A stretch of DNA of 24,000 nucleotides from Minwuia thermotolerans (GCF_002924445.1 NZ_PIGG01000053.1:10063-34062), one strand, 5' to 3'. Positions 6,262 to 16,000 are shown, counted from the stretch's first letter. The notes: a model not told the origin generated them from the sequence alone. Numbers and translations: made by a program.

Positions 6262-7377
6262 TCACGCCGCCATCGGCGCCGGTCCCGGCGTCGGCATGCC
6301 CGCGCCGGCCCGCATCAGGAACAGGCTGCCGGCGATCGCGGCCAACAGCAGCACATAGACCAGCGTATTGAAGAAAGGCTCCGTCGCCGCCGCCTGGGTC
6401 AGCCCCAGTACGGCCGCCTGCAACAGGCCTGCGCTGAGGCAACCGACCCAGATACGCGCGCCGACGCCGCGCCGGTCGAACTCGCCATAGAGCACCGTCG
6501 CGATCGCCATCAGGGCGAAGGCGATGGTCAACAGCGGCAACGCCACGCGCTTGTGCCCTTCCGCCTGGATCCTGTGATAGGTCGCCCGGTCGAAGTCGCC
6601 CGGATCGATGAGGAACAGATCCTCGATCGTACGTTCCTCAATCTTGGCCACGCGCACCGGCGCATTGCTGCCTACCAGATCGATCTCGACGTTGTAGCGG
6701 TCGAAGTAGAGGACGTTGATGTTGCCGCTCTCATGATCCTTCTCCTGGCGATTGCCGTTGAGCAGCAGAATCTTCGGGCCTTCCTCGGCGCGGATCAGCG
6801 TTCCCTGCTCCGCCATCATGGTCACCGACTTGCCCGGCTCGCGCTCGTCGTGAATCAGCAGGCCGTGGAGCTCGCCGCCGGACCGCCGTTCGGCGACATA
6901 GACCGTCAGACGGGTCTTGAGCGGCGTGAACGCGCCCTCGCGCAGCACCACGGTGGAGTAGATGTACTTCCACGCGAACCGGGTGTCGCGCATGGTCGAG
7001 TTCGCCATCGGCATGAAGTAGAACGTCATCGAGGCGACGAAAACCGCGCAGAATCCGGCCAGCAGCAGGCCGGGCCCGGCCAGCGCCATGCGGCTGAGAC
7101 CGGCGGCGCGCATCACCACGAGTTCGCTGTCCGACGACATCCGCCAGTAGGCGTAGAGCATCCCGCAGAACAGGCCGATCGGGAGCGTCACAGGCAGAAG
7201 CTGCGGCAGCAGCAAGAACGAGATGTAGAAGAACGCGCCCATCGACATGTCATAGTTGATGATCTCGTCGACGAAACGCAGCGCCTGAAGGATCCAGATG
7301 ATCCCGGTCAGCACCATCGTCACGAAGGCCGTAGGGCCCGCGGCGGCGCGAATCATGTAGCCGGTCAGATGACGCAT
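6262..7377 (-). CDS. lptF: LPS export ABC transporter permease LptF (YjgP/YjgQ family)
   Basis: The track ORF is 6262-7920. I place the start at the ATG at 7377 (MRHLTGYMIRAAAGPTAFVTMVLTGIIWILQ...). The longer extension would run antisense into pepA. The motif DSELVVMRAAGLSRMAL is typical of the family, and the gene is divergent from pepA as in many proteobacteria. Confidence 0.9.
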   Translation of the reverse strand: MRHLTGYMIRAAAGPTAFVTMVLTGIIWILQALRFVDEIINYDMSMGAFFYISFLLLPQLLPVTLPIGLFCGMLYAYWRMSSDSELVVMRAAGLSRMALAGPGLLLAGFCAVFVASMTFYFMPMANSTMRDTRFAWKYIYSTVVLREGAFTPLKTRLTVYVAERRSGGELHGLLIHDEREPGKSVTMMAEQGTLIRAEEGPKILLLNGNRQEKDHESGNINVLYFDRYNVEIDLVGSNAPVRVAKIEERTIEDLFLIDPGDFDRATYHRIQAEGHKRVALPLLTIAFALMAIATVLYGEFDRRGVGARIWVGCLSAGLLQAAVLGLTQAAATEPFFNTLVYVLLLAAIAGSLFLMRAGAGMPTPGPAPMAA

Positions 7378-7552
7378 GGCGGCGGAGTATAGCGACCTCA
7401 GCGGCCTGTGAAACCCGCTTGGGATGCCTTGCCGCGTGCATCCGGGCCACCTGCGCCGTCGCAGGCCCTGGCGGACGCAAAGCGCCCCATTTACACGGCC
7501 CGGCAAAGCTTGCGATATATCTGTCCGACAGTTTTTCAATGGGATGAGACAG

Positions 7553-9058
7553 ATGGATATCTCGATTTCCGGCGCAAGCATTCCGGGCCGCGGCGTCGTC
7601 GTCGTCGGCGTCGCGAAGGACGGCAAACTGACGCCTGCCGCCAAGGCCCTGGACGAGAAGACCGAAGGCGCCATCCGACAGGTGCTGCGCGCCAGCCGCT
7701 TCACCGGCGCAAGCGGGCAGAGCCAGACCATCGCCGCGCCGCGTGGCACCAGGCTGGACCTGATCGTCCTGCTGGGCCTCGGCGAGACCAAGTCCCTGTC
7801 TTCCCATGATCTGGAACTGATCGGCGGCCGCGCCTTCAAGGCGGTCGCCAACTGCGGCGCGAAGCAGGCCAAGGTGATCATTGACGCCGAGGATCTGGCC
7901 GCGAAGTCGAAACTCACCAAGGGTGCGGCCCAGGCGCATATCGCGATGGGCGCGCGGCTGGCCAGCTACCGCTTCGACCACTACCACACGAAGCTGAAGG
8001 ACGAGGACAAGCCCTCCCTGGAGCAGCTCGCCATCGGCGCCCGCGGCGCAGCCGCAGCGCGCGACGCTTTCGCCGCACTGGACAAGGTCGTCGACGGCGT
8101 CTTCCTGACCCGCGATCTGGTCAGCGAGCCTGCCAACATCCTCTATCCCGCCACCCTTGCCGACCGCTGCCAGGAACTCACCAAGCTGGGCGTCAAGGTT
8201 GAGGTGCTGGGCGAGGCGCAGATGAAGAAGCTCGGCATGGGCGCGCTGGTCGGCGTCGGCCAGGGCTCCGAGAAGGAAAGCCGGCTGGTCGTCATGCAGT
8301 GGAACGGCGGGGCGAAGAACGACAAGCCGATCGCCTTCGTCGGCAAGGGCGTCACCTTCGACACCGGCGGCATCTCCATCAAGCCGGCCGCCGGCATGGA
8401 GGACATGAAGTGGGACATGGGCGGCTCCGCCGCCGTCATCGGCGCCATGGCGGCGCTCGCCGGACGTCAGGCCAAGGCCAACGTCATCGGCGTGGTCGGC
8501 CTGGTCGAGAACATGCCGGACGGCAACGCGCAGCGCCCCGGCGACGTGGTCACCTCCATGTCGGGCCAGACGATCGAGGTGCTGAACACCGACGCCGAAG
8601 GCCGCCTCGTGCTCTGTGACGCCCTCTGGTACACGCAGGACCGCTTCAAGCCCGAGTTCATGATCAACCTCGCCACGCTGACCGGGGCCGTCATCATCTC
8701 GCTCGGCGACGAGTACGCCGGCCTGTTCTCCAACAACGACCGGCTGGCCACGCGGCTGATGGAAGCCGGCGAGGCCGTCGACGAGAAGCTCTGGCGCTTC
8801 CCGTTGCACAAGAACTACGACAAGAAGCTGAAGTCCGACATTGCCGACATGCGCAATATCGGAAACGCCCGCGGCGCGGGTTCCATCACCGCCGCGCAGT
8901 TCCTGCAGCGCTTCGTCAACGATGTGCCCTGGGCGCATCTCGACATCGCCGGCGTTACCTGGTCCAGCAGCGCCAGGCCGACGACGCCCAAGGGCGGCAC
9001 AGGCTTCGGCGTCCGTGTCCTCGACGAACTGGTCCGCCGCCACTACGAGAGCAAATGA
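7553..9058 (+). CDS. pepA: Leucyl (cytosol) aminopeptidase PepA, M17 family
   Basis: The track ORF is 7424-9058. The likely start is the ATG at 7553 (MDISISG...) or 7544. M17 signature blocks are present: VGKGVTFDTGGISIKP, MKWDMGGSAAV, NTDAEGRLVLCDAL and ATLTGA. Confidence 0.93.
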   Translation: MDISISGASIPGRGVVVVGVAKDGKLTPAAKALDEKTEGAIRQVLRASRFTGASGQSQTIAAPRGTRLDLIVLLGLGETKSLSSHDLELIGGRAFKAVANCGAKQAKVIIDAEDLAAKSKLTKGAAQAHIAMGARLASYRFDHYHTKLKDEDKPSLEQLAIGARGAAAARDAFAALDKVVDGVFLTRDLVSEPANILYPATLADRCQELTKLGVKVEVLGEAQMKKLGMGALVGVGQGSEKESRLVVMQWNGGAKNDKPIAFVGKGVTFDTGGISIKPAAGMEDMKWDMGGSAAVIGAMAALAGRQAKANVIGVVGLVENMPDGNAQRPGDVVTSMSGQTIEVLNTDAEGRLVLCDALWYTQDRFKPEFMINLATLTGAVIISLGDEYAGLFSNNDRLATRLMEAGEAVDEKLWRFPLHKNYDKKLKSDIADMRNIGNARGAGSITAAQFLQRFVNDVPWAHLDIAGVTWSSSARPTTPKGGTGFGVRVLDELVRRHYESK

Positions 9059-9501
9059 CGGAAGTCGCGTTCTATCACCTGACCCGCAAGCCGCTGGAAC
9101 GGGCCCTGCCCGAGCTGCTGGAAAAGGTGCTGGAGCGCGGCATGCGCGCGGTGGTGCTGGCGGGCTCCGAGGAGCGCGTGCGCGGCCTGGACGCGCATCT
9201 GTGGAGCTATGACAAGGCCTCGTTCCTGCCCCACGGCGCGGCCGGCGATGGCGATGCCGGGCGGCAGCCGATCTGGCTCACCGCCGAGCCGGAGAACCCC
9301 AATGCCGCCGAGGTGCTGATCCTGGTCGACGGCCGCGACGTGGCGGACAAGTCGGATTTTGCCCGCTGTCTGGACATGTTCAACGGCCTGGACGAGGACG
9401 CCGTGGCCGCCGCCCGCGCGCGCTGGCAGGCGGCCCGTGCGGCGGGCCACGTCTGCACCTACTGGAAACAGGGCGAGCGCGGCTGGGAACGGGGCACATA
9501 A
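9055..9501 (+). CDS. holC: DNA polymerase III subunit chi
   Basis: The 148 aa ORF begins MTEVAFYHLTRKPLERALPELLEKVLERGMRAVVL...LDAHLWSYDKASFLPHG, which is a typical HolC N-terminus. It has an ATGA overlap with the pepA stop (9055-9058). The pepA-holC pair is conserved. Confidence 0.9.
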   Translation: MTEVAFYHLTRKPLERALPELLEKVLERGMRAVVLAGSEERVRGLDAHLWSYDKASFLPHGAAGDGDAGRQPIWLTAEPENPNAAEVLILVDGRDVADKSDFARCLDMFNGLDEDAVAAARARWQAARAAGHVCTYWKQGERGWERGT

Positions 9502-9614
9502 GAACATCCCCGCCGCTCACTCTGGAACGTCACCCATGAGCATTGCAGACAGGGTTTCTTCGCGGACAAAGATATTATAGAATATTGCGCATTCGCCAAT
9601 GTGTGGGAAACACT

Positions 9615-10640
9615 ATGAAATCAATATCATTTTTTAATAACAAGGGTGGCGTTGGAAAAACGACACTCACTGAAAATATCGCTGCATATTTTGCCCTAGA
9701 GAAAAAACAGAGGGTTCTTATTATTGACTGCGATCCGCAATGCAATATTACTCAACTTGTTCTAGGTGATATCAAGACTATTGATTTATATTGGCCAGAA
9801 AAAAATAACAAAGAAGAAACTAAATCAAAAACAATACTGGACGTTGTGGATCCAATTCTAAGTGGAGATGCCGACATAAATTCTCGAATAAGACCTCTGA
9901 GATCAAGCAGCAATCGTTTCGGTGTCGATCTGCTACCCGGCCATCCCCGTTTCTCAACATTCGAGGACGAATTATCAGGATCTTGGGCCGAATTGCCTAC
10001 CGGAAAGGCCGGCGGCTTCCGTGTGACAAACTGGCTACGGTCTTATTTACGCGGTTTAGAAGAAGATTACGATATTGTTTTTATTGACGTCAGCCCATCA
10101 TTAGGGGCATTAAATAGATCTGTTCTTCTTTGCTCTGACTACTTTGTTGTCCCACTTGGCGCCGATGCATTTAGTGTCCTGGGTATTCGTAATATTTCCC
10201 GCTGGATGAGCAGTTGGATTGATTATTATGAAGTAGGTCTTGAACAGTCCGACAGATTGAATCCTGGAGGTTTAGAAAAATATAGTATTATGACAGATAT
10301 TTCAATAAAGAGGGGTTTCATAGGCTTCACACTACAACAATACATTGCCAAAGCAAAAGCTGGAGTTCGGCGACCCACTAAAGCATATGAGAGAATATTG
10401 AATGATATACCCAGAGAGATAGACACTTATCTTAGCAGCTTTGTCGCGAACAATATGGCAACTCCACACCTGGGTGATGTTCCAAATCTATATAGCCTGA
10501 TTCCGATGGCGCAGAGCGCGAACGCTCCAATTATTGCGCTCGAATCTAAGGATGGGCTAGTTGGAAGTCAATTTGGACAGGCTGCACGCTACCGCAACAT
10601 TATCGGCGAATTGGCCGAAACTATCGGAGAGAGGGTATAA
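9615..10640 (+). CDS. ParA/MinD/Soj-class P-loop ATPase (deviant Walker A), 341 aa
   Basis: The track ORF is 9543-10640. I place the start at the ATG at 9615 (MKSISFFNNKGGVGKTTLTENIAAYFA), which puts the Walker A near the N-terminus as in ParA-Ib/MinD proteins. The deviant Walker A KGGVGKTT is at 9642-9665. It is followed by RVLIIDCDPQCN (Walker A') and DIVFIDVSPSLG (Walker B). Codon usage is AT-rich and unlike the host. Confidence 0.85.
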   Translation: MKSISFFNNKGGVGKTTLTENIAAYFALEKKQRVLIIDCDPQCNITQLVLGDIKTIDLYWPEKNNKEETKSKTILDVVDPILSGDADINSRIRPLRSSSNRFGVDLLPGHPRFSTFEDELSGSWAELPTGKAGGFRVTNWLRSYLRGLEEDYDIVFIDVSPSLGALNRSVLLCSDYFVVPLGADAFSVLGIRNISRWMSSWIDYYEVGLEQSDRLNPGGLEKYSIMTDISIKRGFIGFTLQQYIAKAKAGVRRPTKAYERILNDIPREIDTYLSSFVANNMATPHLGDVPNLYSLIPMAQSANAPIIALESKDGLVGSQFGQAARYRNIIGELAETIGERV

Positions 10641-11495
10641 GTGCCCGTTTCTTGGCCAAATACACTTGTCCGTGAAATAGCGGAACGAAGAGCAATTCTA
10701 TTCGTGGGCTCCGGCGTCACAAAATCGGCATTGCCCACACTTCCTAACTGGCCCGACCTATTAAGTGAACTGGCAGAGCGCGTAGATAAAAAGAAAGATG
10801 TGGCCCTTGTCAAAAGTCTGATCCGTAGAGACCGGCTTCTTGATGCCGCTGAATTGATAAATTCACTATTGTCGCCGGTTGAAAGACGGGCTATTTTTGA
10901 GAATAAATTTCTATTTACACCGCCACCTCAAGCAGAGATTTATAGATACCTACTGGATTTAGATTTTAAGGTATGCATAACCACAAATTACGATCAATTT
11001 CTTGAAAAGAATTTTGAATACCATAGCGGCGGCGCCATAGCCTACCAAGTTCGAACTTATAAATATGACAATTTTTTAGCTGATCTCAGATCTCCATCTC
11101 GGACTATTCTAAAACTACATGGGTGCATCACCGATCCGAGCAGTATCATACTGGACCGGCAGCCCTATTTTAAAGCAAAGGCCAATAATCCAGGTATATA
11201 TGATATTGTTGAAGCCCTTTCGACGGTAAATACTGTATTATTTTTTGGATACTCTATAAATGATCCCGATATTCAGTTGATTTTAGAAAGAATTCATGCC
11301 AGATCTCGAACCGATCATCCACACTATGCGCTTGTGTCTAAATTCGAGCACCCGTCTCTTCGAAAAGCCCTGAATGAAACATTTAATGTATCGTTCGTCG
11401 AATACCCCAAAGGTATACACCAGGAATTTCCGGAGGCCGTAAAAGAATTGAGAGACGCAGTAAAGGCCGAACGGGCGCGGTTCGGTATTCCGTGA
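10641..11495 (+). CDS. Stand-alone SIR2-like domain protein (SIR2_2-type, predicted NAD+-consuming effector), 284 aa
   Basis: The GTG start at 10641 directly abuts the TAA of the upstream gene, and a GGAGAGAGGG Shine-Dalgarno-like run lies at 10626-10635. Motifs are ILFVGSGVTKS (aa 19-29), CITTNYDQF (Asn116, codon 10986-10988), ILKLHGC (His160, codon 11118-11120) and VLFFGYSINDPDI (aa 199-211). This is the pattern seen in ThsA/DSR-type SIR2 domains. Confidence 0.8.
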   Translation: MPVSWPNTLVREIAERRAILFVGSGVTKSALPTLPNWPDLLSELAERVDKKKDVALVKSLIRRDRLLDAAELINSLLSPVERRAIFENKFLFTPPPQAEIYRYLLDLDFKVCITTNYDQFLEKNFEYHSGGAIAYQVRTYKYDNFLADLRSPSRTILKLHGCITDPSSIILDRQPYFKAKANNPGIYDIVEALSTVNTVLFFGYSINDPDIQLILERIHARSRTDHPHYALVSKFEHPSLRKALNETFNVSFVEYPKGIHQEFPEAVKELRDAVKAERARFGIP

Positions 11496-11614
11496 TAGAA
11501 TTGGGCACGATAATTTTTAGGATCGAACTTGTTTCAATCGCGCTTCTGAGTACGGATGGCATAAGTTTAGGTTGGTGGCTGTCACAAACCCACAAAGGGG
11601 AGGATTAGAATACG

Positions 11615-12538
11615 ATGAATAGCATCTACCACCATATCCGGGTCATGCCGCTGACCGGCGTGCTGGGCGCGGAGATCGAGGGCGCGGATCTCACAATGCC
11701 GCTGCCCGACCCGGTGTTCGAGGAGATCGAGCAGGCCTTCACCGATCATTCGGTGCTGGTCTTCCGGGACCAGGACATGTCCATCGAGGATCAGAAACGC
11801 TTTACGCGCCGCTTCGGCGAGTTCGGCTTCGAGCCCTATGTCGACACCATGAAGGAGCATCCGGAAGTCATCGAGGTCCTCAAGGAGGCCAGCGAGTCCG
11901 GCATGCTGAATTTCGGCGGCAACTGGCACTCCGACTGGAGCTTCCAGGAGGCGCCGCCCCGGGCCACCATCCTGCACGCCAAGGAGATCCCGCCCTTCGG
12001 CGGCGACACCTGTTTCGCCAGCATGTACCTCGCCTACGACACGCTTTCCGACGGCATGAAGGCCATGCTGGAAGGACTGAACGTGATGCATTCGGCCCGG
12101 CGTCCCTATGGCGTCGGCAACAAGCTGTTCGGCAAGTTCAACCGCGCCATGAAGATCCACAACACCGAGGAGGCGCATGCGGAGCTGGCCCATCCGGCGG
12201 TCCGCACGGTGCCGGAGTCGGGCCGCAAGGCGCTGTTCGTCAATCCCGTCTATTCGATCCGTTTCGAGAACATGAGCGAACGCGAGAGCCGGCCGCTGCT
12301 CGAGTTCCTGCACGCGCACGCGACCCGCATCGAGCTGACCTGCCGCGTCCGCTGGGCGCCGGGCACACTGACCATGTGGGACAACCGCTGCGTCCAGCAC
12401 AACGCCATGAACGACTATGACGGCTACCGCCGCCTGCTCCACCGCACCACGGTCAGGGGCGAACGGCCCTGGCTGGAAGGCAGGGCGCCGGGGGGCTCGG
12501 GAGAGCGCGAACCGGCGCTGGCCCAGTCCGCCGGGTAA
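11615..12538 (+). CDS. tauD: TauD/TfdA-family Fe(II)/2-oxoglutarate-dependent dioxygenase (taurine dioxygenase-like)
   Basis: The 307 aa ORF has the N-terminus ...VMPLTGVLGAEIEGADLTMPL, which resembles E. coli TauD ITPLGPYIGAQISGADLTRPL. The H-x-D iron motif is in NWHSDWSF, with a distal His/Arg region (WDNRCVQHNAMNDY...RRLLHR). An AAAGGGGAGGA Shine-Dalgarno-like run lies ~10 nt upstream. The substrate is not certain. Confidence 0.85.
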   Translation: MNSIYHHIRVMPLTGVLGAEIEGADLTMPLPDPVFEEIEQAFTDHSVLVFRDQDMSIEDQKRFTRRFGEFGFEPYVDTMKEHPEVIEVLKEASESGMLNFGGNWHSDWSFQEAPPRATILHAKEIPPFGGDTCFASMYLAYDTLSDGMKAMLEGLNVMHSARRPYGVGNKLFGKFNRAMKIHNTEEAHAELAHPAVRTVPESGRKALFVNPVYSIRFENMSERESRPLLEFLHAHATRIELTCRVRWAPGTLTMWDNRCVQHNAMNDYDGYRRLLHRTTVRGERPWLEGRAPGGSGEREPALAQSAG

Positions 12539-12563
12539 TGGCGGCGGCGGCCGCACTGAAAGG

Positions 12564-12597
12564 AAAAGGGCTCCGGATCAACTCCGGAGCCCTTTTT
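12564..12597. terminator. Bidirectional intrinsic terminator between the convergent tauD-family gene and bioY
   Basis: There is a 10-bp perfect stem, GGGCTCCGGA (12568-12577) paired with TCCGGAGCCC (12583-12592), and a 5-nt loop. An A4 tract lies on the left and a T5 tract on the right, so a U-tract follows the hairpin on either strand. Confidence 0.75.
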
Positions 12598-12619
12598 CGT
12601 GGCCGCAAGAGCGCTCAAC

Positions 12620-13210
12620 TCAGCGGCGCGACAGGCGGGCGATGAAACCGCCGAGAACCGTCGCGAGGCCCGCCGCGAGAGCCAGCTTCACGAGATCGGT
12701 GACGATGAACGGGCCGATACCGTAGGCGATCGCCATATCCACGCCCAGCAGATAGGCCAGCCAGAGCGCGCCAAGGGCCAGGATCGCGACTTCGCCGAGG
12801 AGCATGGCCGCGCCGATCTTGAGCGGGTTGCGCCACCAGCCCCGATCCGAGGCCCAGCCGACAATGGCGGTCGCGGCGACGAAACCCGCCAGGTAGCCCC
12901 CCGTCGGACCTGCCATGTAGGCGACGCCAAGGCCCTTCTCCGGGGTACCCTGGAACACCGGCATGCCGAGCGCACCCTCCATCAGATAGAGCAGGACCGT
13001 AGCCATTCCGAGGCGCAGGCCGAACGTGGCCGCGATGGTGAATACGGCAAGGGTCTGCAGGGACATCTCGACGGGCCACATGGGCACCTTCGCCTTCGCC
13101 GACATGGTCAGGATGATCGTGCCCATCACCATGAACGCAAGGAACCAGGCCGAACGCGTGAACCGATGGCTCGTTCCGATGCCGTCAAGCGGCGCTGCCG
13201 TTGATCTCAT
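12620..13210 (-). CDS. bioY: Biotin transporter BioY (ECF S-component type)
   Basis: The track ORF is 12620-13960. Only the last 196 codons, from the ATG at 13210, look genuine (MRSTAAPLDG...SLQTLAVFTIAATFGLRLGMATVLLYLMEGALGMPVFQG...GPTGGYLAGF...). The protein is multi-TM with BioY-typical blocks. The upstream extension crosses a terminator and overlaps atpF/atpF'. Confidence 0.85.
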   Translation of the reverse strand: MRSTAAPLDGIGTSHRFTRSAWFLAFMVMGTIILTMSAKAKVPMWPVEMSLQTLAVFTIAATFGLRLGMATVLLYLMEGALGMPVFQGTPEKGLGVAYMAGPTGGYLAGFVAATAIVGWASDRGWWRNPLKIGAAMLLGEVAILALGALWLAYLLGVDMAIAYGIGPFIVTDLVKLALAAGLATVLGGFIARLSRR

Positions 13211-13282
13211 GTGTTCGTACCCCCGGGATTCTTGGACAGAACGCTGCGTCGGCGGAATGGACCTCCCCGTTCCCGCCGGCGC

Positions 13283-13313
13283 AAAAAAGGGGCTCCGGCA
13301 ACGCCGGAGCCCC
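13283..13313 (-). terminator. Intrinsic terminator of the F0 ATP synthase operon
   Basis: There is an 11-bp perfect stem, GGGGCTCCGGC (13289-13299) paired with GCCGGAGCCCC (13303-13313), and a 3-nt loop. The A6 tract at 13283-13288 reads as U6 after the hairpin on the minus-strand transcript. It lies 26 nt downstream of the atpF stop. Confidence 0.75.
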
Positions 13314-13338
13314 TGATTGTTGCTTCCTTGCGGAATGC

Positions 13339-13824
13339 TCAGTGCAGGTGGCGTCCCACGCTGCCGATGGCGTCGTCGATCAGCCGGTTGCCGGCGTCGC
13401 CCTTCAGCTCTTCGCGCAGGATGCGCGCGGCCGCGGCGGTGGCGATGTCGACGGCGCGGTTGCGCACCTCGTCGATCGCCTGCTGCTCGGCCTGGGCGAT
13501 CTTGGATTCCGCCTGGGCCTTCCGGCGTTCCAGCGCGGCCTCCATGTCCGACCGCATCTTCTCGGCCGTGCGCTCGGCTTCCTCGCGGGCGTGCTCGACG
13601 ATGCGGTCCGCTTCCTGGACCGCCTCCTCGGCCTTGCGCTGGTAGTCGGCGTAGAGGGACTGCGCCTCCTCCCGGAGCCGCTTGGCCTCCTCCAGCTCGC
13701 CGCGGATGCGGTCCGCGCGGGCGTCGAGCTGCGCCACGATCTTCCCCGGCAGCTTCAGATAGATCATCAGCGCGAAGAAGAGGACGAAGGCGACGGCGAC
13801 CCAGAATGTCGGATCTGCGAACAT
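13339..13824 (-). CDS. atpF: F0F1 ATP synthase subunit b
   Basis: The 161 aa ORF has a single N-terminal TM segment (MFADPTFWVAVAFVLFFALMIYLKLP) followed by a long charged helix (EEAKRLREEAQ...). It is the last gene of the atpI-B-E-F'-F operon. Its start overlaps the b' stop by 1 nt (TGATG). Confidence 0.9.
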   Translation of the reverse strand: MFADPTFWVAVAFVLFFALMIYLKLPGKIVAQLDARADRIRGELEEAKRLREEAQSLYADYQRKAEEAVQEADRIVEHAREEAERTAEKMRSDMEAALERRKAQAESKIAQAEQQAIDEVRNRAVDIATAAAARILREELKGDAGNRLIDDAIGSVGRHLH

Positions 13825-14315
13825 CAGCGGCCTCCCTCGCGCGCGGCCGAAACCGCCTGGCTGACCCGGTCGTCCGACGGCGCCGCGCCCGACAGCTTCT
13901 GAACCAGGGCCGCGGTGACGCTGCAGGCGACGTCGTCCAGCGAGGCCAGAGCCGCGTCACGCTGCTGCGCGATCTGCTTCTCCGCCTCGGTCTGACGCTG
14001 GTCCAGTTCGGCCTCGATCTCCTGGCGGCGCTTGTCGATCTCGGCGTTCATCTCCGCCTTCATGCCGGCGACGATATTCGCCGCGCTGGAGCGCGCTTCG
14101 GCCAACCGGGCCTCGTAGTCCCGGATCGCCTTGTCGGTCTCCGACTTCAGCTCCTCGGCCTTGTCGAGGTCCGACCGGATTCGCTGCTCGCGGTCTTCCA
14201 GGATCCCGCCGATCCGCGGGATGACCACCCGCGCCATGATCAGGTAAAGGATCACGAAAGTGATCGCGAGCCAGACGATCTGGGATGCAAAGGTTTCTGC
14301 AGCAAGCTGCGGCAT
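13824..14315 (-). CDS. atpF2: F0F1 ATP synthase subunit b' (second b-type subunit)
   Basis: The 163 aa ORF begins MPQLAAETFASQIVWLAITFVILYLIMARVVIPRIGGILEDREQRI..., a b-type architecture. Duplicated b/b' subunits are typical of alphaproteobacterial and photosynthetic-type F0 operons. Confidence 0.9.
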   Translation of the reverse strand: MPQLAAETFASQIVWLAITFVILYLIMARVVIPRIGGILEDREQRIRSDLDKAEELKSETDKAIRDYEARLAEARSSAANIVAGMKAEMNAEIDKRRQEIEAELDQRQTEAEKQIAQQRDAALASLDDVACSVTAALVQKLSGAAPSDDRVSQAVSAAREGGR

Positions 14316-14364
14316 GAGCCCGTGGCCTCGCTGTTGACGTTACGTGTTCGCGTTCGCGGAAAGG

Positions 14365-14384
14365 GACGCGCCCGAAGGCGCGCC
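14365..14384 (-). promoter_or_regulatory. Intra-operon stem-loop immediately after atpE (candidate mRNA stabiliser or partial attenuator)
   Basis: The minus-strand RNA reads GGCGCGCC-UUCG-GGCGCGUC. This is an 8-bp stem with one G-U pair and a UUCG tetraloop, starting 3 nt after the atpE stop. The G-U position is an A-C mismatch on the plus strand, so the structure is specific to the atp transcript. No strong U-tract follows. Confidence 0.45.
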
Positions 14385-14386
14385 GA

Positions 14387-14614
14387 TCAGAATGCGAACA
14401 GGATCAGGAACGCGATGACCAGCGCGAACAGCGCAACGGCCTCGGTGAGCGCGAAGCCCAGCAGCACGTTGCCGAACACACGGCCGGCAGCGCCCGGATT
14501 GCGCAGCGCGCCCGCGACGAAGTTGCCGAAGATGTTACCGATACCCACGCCCACACCGGCGAGCGCGATGGTGGCCAGACCGGCGCCAATCAGCTTTGCG
14601 GCTTCAGCTTCCAT
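14387..14614 (-). CDS. atpE: F0F1 ATP synthase subunit c
   Basis: The 75 aa ORF reads [75 protein letters not shown]. It is a classic c-subunit hairpin with the conserved carboxylate (E in LTEA). Confidence 0.97.
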
Positions 14615-14684
14615 TTTCCTAAGTCCCTCTTCAATTCAGGTTGAGGATGATGATCGAAGTTCGAAGTTTCCGGCTCTCTCCGGC

Positions 14685-15422
14685 TCAGTGCCCGGGATGC
14701 AGGGCGTCGTGGAGATAGAGACAGCTCAGAATGGTGAACACATAGGCCTGGAGCAGCGCGATGCCGATCTCCAGACCGGTCAGCGCGACGATGAAGAGCA
14801 GCGGCGCCCAGCCGGCGATGATGCCCAGCGAGACGACGAAGCTGCCGAAGACCTTCAGCATGGTGTGACCGGCCATCATGTTCGCGAACAGTCGCAGGCT
14901 CAGGCTGATCGGCCGCACGAAATAGGAGATGATCTCGATCGGCACCAGGATGAACATCAGCGGCAGGGGCACGCCGGAGGGCACGAACAGTTTCAGGAAG
15001 CCGACACCGTGCTTGAAGATGCCGATCAGGGTCACACCGATGAAGACCACCAGCGCCATCGCGAAGGTGACGATGATGTGGCTCGTCGGCGTGAAGCTGT
15101 AGGGCACCATCCCCAGCAGATTGCAGAACAGGATGAAGAAGAACAGGGTGAACAGGAACGGGAAATAGGGCCGGCCTTCGGATCCCGCATTGTCCCGCAC
15201 CATGTTGGCGATGAATTCGTAACTCATCTCGGCCACCGACTGCAGCCGCCCCGGCACCATGGCCCGGCCGCGCATGCCGACGGTCAGCAGCACCGTGGTG
15301 ACGATCACCGCGATGACCATCCACAGCGCGGAATTCGTGAAGGATACGTCGACGCCGCCGATCTCCAGCGGGACGATCGGGGTGATCTCGAACTGATGCA
15401 GAGGGCTTTCGCCTGCGGCCAC
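14685..15422 (-). CDS. atpB: F0F1 ATP synthase subunit a
   Basis: The 245 aa multi-TM ORF has the conserved SLSLRLFANMMAGH block containing the essential Arg. It lies directly upstream of atpE. Confidence 0.95.
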   Translation of the reverse strand: MAAGESPLHQFEITPIVPLEIGGVDVSFTNSALWMVIAVIVTTVLLTVGMRGRAMVPGRLQSVAEMSYEFIANMVRDNAGSEGRPYFPFLFTLFFFILFCNLLGMVPYSFTPTSHIIVTFAMALVVFIGVTLIGIFKHGVGFLKLFVPSGVPLPLMFILVPIEIISYFVRPISLSLRLFANMMAGHTMLKVFGSFVVSLGIIAGWAPLLFIVALTGLEIGIALLQAYVFTILSCLYLHDALHPGH

Positions 15423-15423
15423 G

Positions 15424-15762
15424 CTATCCGTCCTCTCGTTCCTCGGCGGCCTTCTGGAACTTCATGGCCACCCTGTACACGTTCCTGATACCCACCGCGC
15501 CGCCAATCAGCAACCCGGCAAGGAAGACCCAGGGTCGCGTTCCGATCCACTCGTCGATCCACCAGCCGACGAAGCCGCAGACCAGGAACGCCGCCACCAG
15601 CTCGGCGGAGATCCGCCAGGCGATGCCGTCCGCCCTCGACCTATCCCGCGCCTCGGCCCGCTCCGGGTCCCGGCCTATGTGGCCGGACTCGCGCGCCGCC
15701 TTGATGCGGGCTTCCAGCGTCCCTACACGATCGCGCCACTTTCCGCGCTCATCGTCGCTCAT
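15424..15762 (-). CDS. atpI: ATP synthase protein I (AtpI-like small membrane protein)
   Basis: The 112 aa ORF has a charged N-terminus followed by two hydrophobic segments (ISAELVAAFLVCGFVGWWI / WVFLAGLLIGGAVGI). It is the first gene of the F0 operon, 1 nt upstream of atpB. The call rests mainly on position and topology. Confidence 0.75.
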   Translation of the reverse strand: MSDDERGKWRDRVGTLEARIKAARESGHIGRDPERAEARDRSRADGIAWRISAELVAAFLVCGFVGWWIDEWIGTRPWVFLAGLLIGGAVGIRNVYRVAMKFQKAAEEREDG

Positions 15763-16000
15763 CGACCGGTCCCGCCGGCCGACGCCGCGCTCCGCTCAAG
15801 GCGATGATTGATGATCACGGTACCCATGGCCCGAACGTGATCCGGTTCGGAAGCGGGCGCAACCTATGACGCCCCCGGGGGGTGGTCAACGCGGCCCCAG
15901 CGGACCAAATGACGCACCGATCCGCACTTTGGCCGCGCCGCTCCCGGGGTCCACGATGGCCCGCAGTAGAAGCCCGCAAGCCAGCGAGGAGCGCCCAGCC

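Follow-up and report, generated by a model that had tools for sequence, protein, structure and literature searches.

NADases of the SIR2 type are recurrent executioners of bacterial immunity with human relatives (FAM118B), and the way in which the enzyme is held off and turned on differs from one system to the next. In SIR2-HerA (Nezha), a SIR2 NADase is combined with an oligomeric, DNA-acting P-loop ATPase and the SIR2 is controlled by assembly (PMC12948488). A dyad of a ParA/Soj-like ATPase and a HEPN protein has been put forward by computational prediction, with the ATPase proposed as the antitoxin of a new toxin-antitoxin (TA) system (Anantharaman et al. 2013, Biol Direct 8:15, PMC3710099), and "Sir2" occurs 0 times in the text of that paper. 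Here we analysed a stretch of 24,000 nucleotides (nt) from Minwuia thermotolerans (GCF_002924445.1 NZ_PIGG01000053.1:10063-34062; hereafter the window, with positions counted from its first letter), in which a gene for a minimal SIR2_2 protein (10641-11495, plus strand) directly follows one encoding a ParA/Soj-like ATPase (9615-10640, plus strand). We give a probability of roughly 0.6 to the reading that this pair is a self-contained, horizontally mobile toxin-plus-switch conflict module, most likely an abortive-infection anti-phage system.

The two genes are found together far beyond this genome. Scanning one genome per species yielded 79 loci, 66 of them with a SIR2 of the same family, and after leaving out one as uninformative because its SIR2 lay at a contig edge (L063), we found the ATPase open reading frame (ORF) directly upstream and on the same strand in 63 of the 65 informative loci. 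The two exceptions were a locus in which both the ATPase and the SIR2 genes had decayed (L065) and a metagenome-assembled genome of Demequinaceae (L038:2392-6849), which holds the only intact family SIR2 that lacks the ATPase; there the SIR2 is preceded by a 1092-amino-acid (aa) protein that combines N6_Mtase and C-terminal specificity (Type ISP) domains. Hosts of the pair span at least nine phyla and comprise Alpha-, Beta-, Gamma- and Zetaproteobacteria, Acidobacteriota, Bacteroidota, Firmicutes, Actinobacteria, Cyanobacteria, Chloroflexi, Myxococcota and Desulfobacterota. Among 58 loci, 56 had a gap of -8 to +10 nt from ATPase stop to SIR2 start, which in 28 loci was -4 nt, and the pairwise distances of the two proteins correlated with r = 0.88, a value reached by 0 of 2000 permutations in a Mantel test. 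Look-ups seeded with ATPase homologues in Pseudomonas aeruginosa, Agrobacterium vitis and Mesorhizobium returned a SIR2_2 gene downstream every time, and 14 informative viral or prophage-like contigs of IMG/VR held 13 intact pairs and 1 partial pair. No third gene was conserved when the flanking ORFs of the 63 loci were clustered: the sole recurrent neighbours, uvrA/uvrB, came from closely related Lachnospiraceae loci, and the 114 nearest neighbour proteins were spread over 193 Pfam families. The ATPase is thus an obligate, co-evolving and translationally coupled partner of the SIR2 protein. The first-pass annotation of the SIR2 gene, made from the window alone, had named the abutting ATPase as the obvious candidate for control in trans, and comparative genomics strongly supports this candidacy through the adjacency, the correlated distances and the retained catalytic residues of both proteins.

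The SIR2 gene encodes 284 aa, and the ORF call, Pfam, alignment, structure prediction and Foldseek together led us to predict an NAD+-consuming effector. Four blocks typical of defence SIR2 domains had been read from the sequence in the first-pass annotation, and a script located all four in order at the same residues: FVGSGVT (aa 21-27; 10701-10721), the Rossmann GxG dinucleotide-binding loop, with G23 and G25 invariant in 60/60 sequences; TTNYD (aa 114-118; 10980-10994), with the predicted catalytic Asn116 (N116 in 59/60, D118 in 60/60); KLHG (aa 158-161; 11112-11123), with the predicted catalytic His160 (60/60); and FFGYSINDPD (aa 201-210; 11241-11270), the fourth conserved SIR2_2 block (D208 and D210 in 60/60), all on the plus strand. 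Beyond F201, G203 and P209 of this last block, the residues invariant in the 30-sequence family alignment were G23, G25, T114-D118, R150, S151, K158, H160-C162, D208-D210, E216, H228 and N249. The proposal that the Asn/His pair is of the NADase type also held up, since the two motifs align with TTNYD and K-x-HG of DSR2; the KvHG of DSR2 that aligns with KLHG contains the His replaced in the H171A structures on deposit. From the last motif to the C-terminus there are 74 aa, in line with the earlier estimate of about 75.

Pfam SIR2_2 (PF13289; E 1.2e-29, 103.7 bits against a gathering cut-off of 24.5) was the sole match in the Pfam scan, well above what chance would give and with no second domain, and the classical sirtuin family PF02146 gave no match at E ≤ 1. 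The protein has only two Cys, at positions 112 and 162, and hence no Zn ribbon; its Kyte-Doolittle maximum over a 19-aa window is 1.15, and hence it has no transmembrane (TM) segment. The AlphaFold2 (AF2) model consists of one globular SIR2 domain (predicted local distance difference test score (pLDDT) 88.5, predicted template-modelling score (pTM) 0.86). These results bear out the description of a protein that lacks sensor, ligand-binding and membrane regions. When the PDB was searched with the family profile, the matches were DSR2 (5.6e-24), ThsA (1.2e-23), KomC (6e-20) and human FAM118B (8e-17), and Foldseek aligned the model over the whole chain with KomC, the SIR2 domain of DSR2 and ThsA at template-modelling scores of 0.6-0.73, KomC being the best match (9v0g_E, E 1.8e-13; 9xvc_E, score 0.73). 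Profile and fold comparisons thus agree in placing the protein with SIR2_2 NADases rather than zinc-ribbon deacetylases, as had been suggested. Judged from the profile matches and the model, the protein consists of a SIR2 domain of the NAD-hydrolase type that is complete yet bare, with predicted NADase activity and predicted toxicity. The bare form is not peculiar to this copy: a search of 1.84 billion representative proteins returned 509 clusters of the family at E ≤ 1e-30, and the best 150 of these 509 were nearly all 275-305 aa long, a near-uniform length which indicates that the minimal architecture is the rule for the family. The PADLOC models for ThsA, LmuA-SIR2, Dsr1 and the candidate PDC-S25 cover only the SIR2 core of the window protein. 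About 40 IMG/VR viral or prophage contigs (L190-L229) encode a different SIR2 protein of about 530 aa with no ATPase, which may be the family modelled by PDC-S25 (517-528 profile positions).

The start of the SIR2 gene is also of consequence for public records. Its GTG start codon lies immediately 3' of the TAA stop of the ATPase ORF, and residues 1-21 are kept in homologues, with W5, P6, E12 and R17 invariant in the alignment. The NCBI record for Minwuia thermotolerans gives a 263-aa SIR2 product, 100% identical over its length, which starts 21 codons downstream and leaves out 10641-10703. Because the N-terminal residues are conserved in homologues, the 284-aa reading is the correct one and the 263-aa product too short, so that the public annotation of this gene is probably truncated at its N-terminus.

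The upstream gene starts at the ATG at 9615 and encodes 341 aa, 100% identical to the Minwuia thermotolerans protein named "ParA family protein" by NCBI. Its Pfam matches were AAA_31 (3e-33) and CbiA (2e-13), and PDB entry 3pg5 (DIP2308), the only close solved relative, matched over the full length with E 1e-64. Foldseek of its AF2 model (pLDDT 84) ranked 3pg5 first, followed by Soj, ParA, ParA2 and McdA. The deviant Walker A motif NNKGGVGKTT, with signature Lys10 and P-loop Lys15, occupies 9636-9665 on the plus strand, and FNNKGGVGKTT, DxDPQ (D38/D40) and the Walker B residues D153/D158 were all at least 95% conserved among 63 partner ATPases, which indicates that the nucleotide cycle matters. 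By these motifs and matches the protein is assigned to the deviant Walker A (ParA/MinD, SIMIBI) class, with hydrolysis and dimerisation predicted, and we regard it as a putative switch or regulator that acts on the SIR2 protein in a nucleotide-dependent way. No PADLOC model matched it below E 8e-5. One partner ATPase (L041:4952-5995) has KGGVGR in place of KGGVGK in Walker A, and NCBIfam has a separate domain model named "KGGVGR-motif variant AAA ATPase", which was a weak match in the NCBIfam scan.

In the window, the pair makes up a low-GC island of 2.1 kb (9502-11614) that contains these two genes only, with 42.9% GC against 67.1% to the left and 67.7% to the right, with a holC-like gene on one side (9055-9501) and a TauD-like one on the other (11615-12538). 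Identity of the ATPase to the window copy is 80% in Chromatiaceae and 55% in Rhizobiales, and similarity therefore does not track taxonomy. The cassette is horizontally acquired and mobile. Neither direct nor inverted repeats of any significance border 9502-11614, no tRNA or Rfam element was found at the island, and no integrase or transposase was recognised in ORF translations from 7000 to 16000, the rest of the window having been viewed by coordinates only. Scanning the island for promoters and terminators gave weak consensus matches, the sole "terminator" being the gene junction itself. The high-GC surroundings, including 13339-15762, are otherwise an ordinary housekeeping region, which the island interrupts, and carry pepA-like, holC-like and TauD-like genes, a gene for a BioY-like membrane protein and ATP synthase F0 genes, as judged from ORF translations only.

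Elsewhere, the pair is widespread in P. aeruginosa, where the ATPase cluster represents 157 contigs and is indexed in 249 collection blocks. The P. aeruginosa copies sit in a small, variable stretch bounded by pdxB-like and aceK genes (L082-L085:2744-9384). A GmrSD type IV restriction gene, an Arm-DNA-binding fragment of an integrase and two genes that lack annotation (109 and 321 aa) share this stretch, which looks like a defence hotspot. Plasmids carry the pair as well, among them one of Vibrio ponticus on which a separate ParA-ParB pair and a RelE/Phd TA pair are also encoded. According to Pfam and PADLOC, some of the 114 nearest neighbours are YhcG, Fic, PIN and ResIII proteins or DNA methylases; these scattered defence-type neighbours are suggestive, not decisive.

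The same ATPase family is also paired with a second kind of predicted toxin. Among 32 plasmid records with a full-length ATPase homologue, 8 were linked to SIR2, and the others, at 26-32% identity, had no SIR2. In Burkholderia glumae, the ATPase gene overlaps a gene for a 204-aa HEPN_RiboL-PSP protein. Alignment showed the HEPN-linked and SIR2-linked ATPases to be homologous end to end, including the C-terminal region, at 24-27% identity and in separate clades. We then scanned metagenomes with the B. glumae ATPase as seed and found, among the 80 nearest loci, 43 in which the co-oriented downstream gene encoded a HEPN protein of about 200 aa, and 0/80 with a SIR2 downstream. Of 46 downstream proteins scanned, 39 matched Pfam HEPN_RiboL-PSP and 2 matched MAE_28990/18760-like HEPN. 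The shared ATPase family and the HEPN dyads together make the window pair the SIR2-effector counterpart of a predicted class of ATPase-toxin systems.

Further features of these loci may be noted. The HEPN partners at L092:3995-5634 and L094-L152 carry an R-x4-6-H motif, and the dyad appears abundant in metagenomes. A 231-aa protein with a cyclase-like "FLDVLGFTEM" motif adjoins one ATPase homologue (L170:4056-4751), and other neighbours of ATPase homologues (L131:1526-2557, L133:1261-2280, L140:1850-2923, L093:5352-5978) include a convergent TIR-like protein ("IFLSYS") and a 208-aa protein that lacks a Pfam match. Proteins of about 340 aa, likewise convergent, also occur, and their N-terminus appears similar to that of the Abi_2 family. 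The cyclase-like, TIR-like, 340-aa and 208-aa proteins may be further effectors or merely defence-island neighbours.

A subclade of the SIR2-linked pair comes with a methyltransferase gene. A DNA methyltransferase of the N4/N6 type, of one family and co-oriented with the pair, abuts it in Salmonella Infantis (L080:6856-9870) and at four other loci (L034:3811-6861, L039:3813-6867, L047:4893-8000, L012:4923-9131). On a metagenomic contig (L230:1310-4362) a fusion protein carries the methylase at the SIR2 C-terminus (P0305, 665 aa), with the ATPase upstream in a 4-nt overlap. Nothing matched the Salmonella three-gene locus among 5,426 complete genomes of E. coli, and the window copy of the pair has no methylase. 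This linkage and fusion, together with the Type ISP-like partner in Demequinaceae, suggest that, for some members at least, DNA and the state of its modification matter, and in the methyltransferase subclade they hint at methylation-based self-marking.

How such a pair could work is suggested by what is known of its two parts. ATPases of the ParA/MinD class switch between a monomer and an ATP-sandwich dimer, and in the Soj/ParA branch the dimer binds DNA non-specifically. Defence SIR2 enzymes, for their part, are switched on by changes of assembly, a point we draw also from the "helical" structures of ThsA and KomBC among the Foldseek matches. In the model we favour, the SIR2 protein would be the effector, which, once released or activated, would consume NAD+ at Asn116/His160 in the manner of ThsA, DSR2 and KomC, and the loss of NAD+ would halt the metabolism of the infected cell. 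The ATPase would be the controller, forming an ATP-sandwich dimer and cycling between states like other deviant-Walker-A ATPases, and this cycle, probably coupled to binding of DNA or the nucleoid, would gate SIR2 assembly or access to NAD+. A phage-induced change, such as foreign or unmodified DNA, lost nucleoid binding or a nucleotide imbalance, could then release the NADase and abort the infection. We infer the NADase chemistry, the restraint of SIR2 by the ATPase at rest, the DNA cue and the phage trigger. The direction of control is hinted at by patterns of decay. In Agrobacterium vitis the SIR2 gene is frameshifted near codon 123 beside an intact ATPase in two independent assemblies (L086:6026-6876, L087:1266-2107), a recent inactivation of the effector alone; ATPase homologues that have no paired gene exist; and no intact family SIR2 stood beside a decayed ATPase among the surveyed loci. 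Together these observations suggest, as weak evidence, that the ATPase restrains SIR2 at rest. The premise of the first-pass annotation that the SIR2 enzyme alone would be constitutively active is an assumption.

The same decay pattern, in which SIR2 is hit while the ATPase is kept and never the reverse, would equally be expected of the main rival, a classical TA or addiction module. There the SIR2 protein would be a constitutive NADase toxin and the ATPase an antitoxin that acts through nucleotide-dependent binding or phosphorylation, the whole stabilising the cassette or its carrier element. We regard it as unlikely in its pure form, and it overlaps the abortive-infection model and differs from it chiefly in the trigger; indeed the two roles can coexist. 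Exactly the antitoxin role was given to the ATPase of the homologous ParA/Soj-HEPN dyads (PMC3710099), the ATPase gene is upstream and translationally coupled, a position usual for antitoxins, and plasmid copies adjoin other TA genes. Typical labile antitoxins are, however, unlike this 341-aa enzyme, whose catalytic site is fully conserved, the Demequinaceae locus retains an intact family SIR2 with no ATPase, and the methyltransferase linkage and fusion in the subclade point to discrimination of DNA. That linkage, and the membership of the partner in the DNA-binding ParA/Soj class, could also be accommodated if SIR2 were a protein- or DNA-modifying enzyme, such as a deacylase or ADP-ribosyltransferase acting on the ATPase or a DNA-associated target, in a regulatory or DNA-transaction system that spares the NAD+ pool. 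The SIR2 superfamily does include deacylases and ADP-ribosyltransferases as well as NADases, which must be held against our reading of the window protein. Such an enzyme is quite improbable here, given that no classical sirtuin match and no zinc ribbon were found, that the nearest relatives in sequence and in structure are without exception immune effectors that hydrolyse NAD+, that the distribution is sporadic and horizontally transferred, and that the sister dyads place an RNase toxin in the same position. A third possibility, in which SIR2 is an unrelated passenger gene beside a ParA with an ordinary role in partition or positioning, would fit the NCBI name and the weak, sub-threshold matches to the NCBIfam ParA_partition and RepA models. 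All NCBIfam partition-ParA models nevertheless scored far under their cut-offs (ParA_partition, 60.6 bits against 180), neither a ParB gene nor a parS-like partner adjoins it, the Vibrio ponticus plasmid has a separate ParA-ParB pair, and adjacency to SIR2 is conserved across phyla with the two proteins co-evolving. These scores, the separate ParA-ParB pair of the plasmid, the pairing and the co-evolution effectively exclude a partition ParA with a passenger gene, and the locus was not assigned to the ParABS partition systems.

Several further observations weigh against an anti-phage module. The ATPase is more conserved than SIR2 (pairwise distances average 0.54 for the ATPase and 0.61 for SIR2, and identity in close relatives is 67-85% and 47-71%, respectively), and such slow evolution is unlike that of fast-evolving defence sensors and equally fits a housekeeping-like regulator or an antitoxin. 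Its slower evolution relative to SIR2 also disfavours a direct protein-sensing role for the ATPase. No further defence gene lies near the pair in the window, and the immediate neighbours of the pair are mostly ordinary genes. We found no paper on a ParA-SIR2 pair in the full-text literature, a scope that subscription journals and supplementary tables fall outside, and the pair is not modelled as a system in PADLOC 2023, where its absence also counts against a defence role, or in NCBIfam, and it is missing from the reviews consulted; it may have been listed earlier as a candidate, for example in supplementary tables or in DefenseFinder models. We retain the abortive-infection module as the preferred reading.

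A wider proposal is rather doubtful and is offered tentatively: the ParA/Soj-like ATPase family might be a general immunity sensor or switch that reads the state of DNA and licenses interchangeable suicide effectors (SIR2 NADases, HEPN RNases), with the methylation state read in the methyltransferase subclade. If this were true, unmodified DNA would count as foreign, and the logic would resemble restriction-modification with NAD+ depletion rather than DNA cleavage as its output. We found no demonstration of a ParA/Soj-class ATPase controlling an immune effector, and the coupling seen here is as tight as that of validated two-gene systems. Since the ATPase family is also paired with predicted HEPN toxins, solving one system would explain the whole class. 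The pair is small, with two soluble proteins encoded in 2 kb, and 3pg5 already supplies a crystal structure for a homologue of the partner, so that the direction of control and the trigger are directly testable.

Compared with described systems, the window pair is closest in its regulator to the ParA/Soj-HEPN dyad (PMC3710099), with which it shares an ATPase homologous over its full length, the ATPase-first order, an overlapping or abutting stop and start, the two-gene format and mobility. The effector of the dyad is a HEPN RNase, whereas that of the window is of the SIR2_2 NADase type, and because the downstream gene is SIR2_2 and not HEPN, the window system is an effector variant rather than a member of the dyad as described. 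The ATPase itself resembles 3pg5, a structural-genomics entry from Corynebacterium diphtheriae (31-32% identity in structural alignment, template-modelling scores 0.71-0.81), for which no function or partner is on record. On the effector side, Kongming is similar, as KomC is a bare 264-aa SIR2 NADase under a separate partner, KomB, and dITP; it differs in sharing only about 20% identity with the window protein and in having as partners the HAM1-type pyrophosphatase KomB and the deaminase KomA instead of a ParA-type ATPase. With no KomA or KomB genes, and an island that holds only the ATPase and SIR2, the locus is not a Kongming system. SIR2-HerA likewise consists of two genes and pairs SIR2 with a P-loop ATPase, but HerA is a hexamer of the FtsK/HerA class and the window partner a SIMIBI-class protein of the ParA/Soj dimer type; the adjacent AAA_31/CbiA protein with a Soj/ParA fold is not HerA, and membership was rejected. 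The generic SIR2 models of PADLOC matched the window SIR2 weakly (E 1e-3 to 3e-2). ThsA and DSR2 share their SIR2_2 catalytic core and motifs with the window protein; by sequence they are its strongest relatives in the PDB and PADLOC, and their template-modelling scores are about 0.7. ThsA of Thoeris differs in having a C-terminal SLOG (STALD) sensor and in needing a TIR partner (ThsB); the PADLOC ThsA match covers only profile positions 12-230 of 478, and the neighbours are the ATPase and a TauD-like gene with no TIR protein, so the locus was not assigned to Thoeris. DSR2/DSR1 proteins are about 1000-1200 aa long with a C-terminal sensor, against 284 aa here, and the NCBIfam Dsr2 model scored 16.5 bits against a cut-off of 1400, which rejects this assignment as well. 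As a separately regulated bare SIR2 (KomC) and a SIR2 with an ATPase partner (HerA) precede it, a system of this kind is already known. What is new are the putative ParA/Soj-class controller of SIR2 and the methylase-linked subclade, and the pair is a real, widespread SIR2-effector variant of the ParA-like ATPase-toxin dyads.

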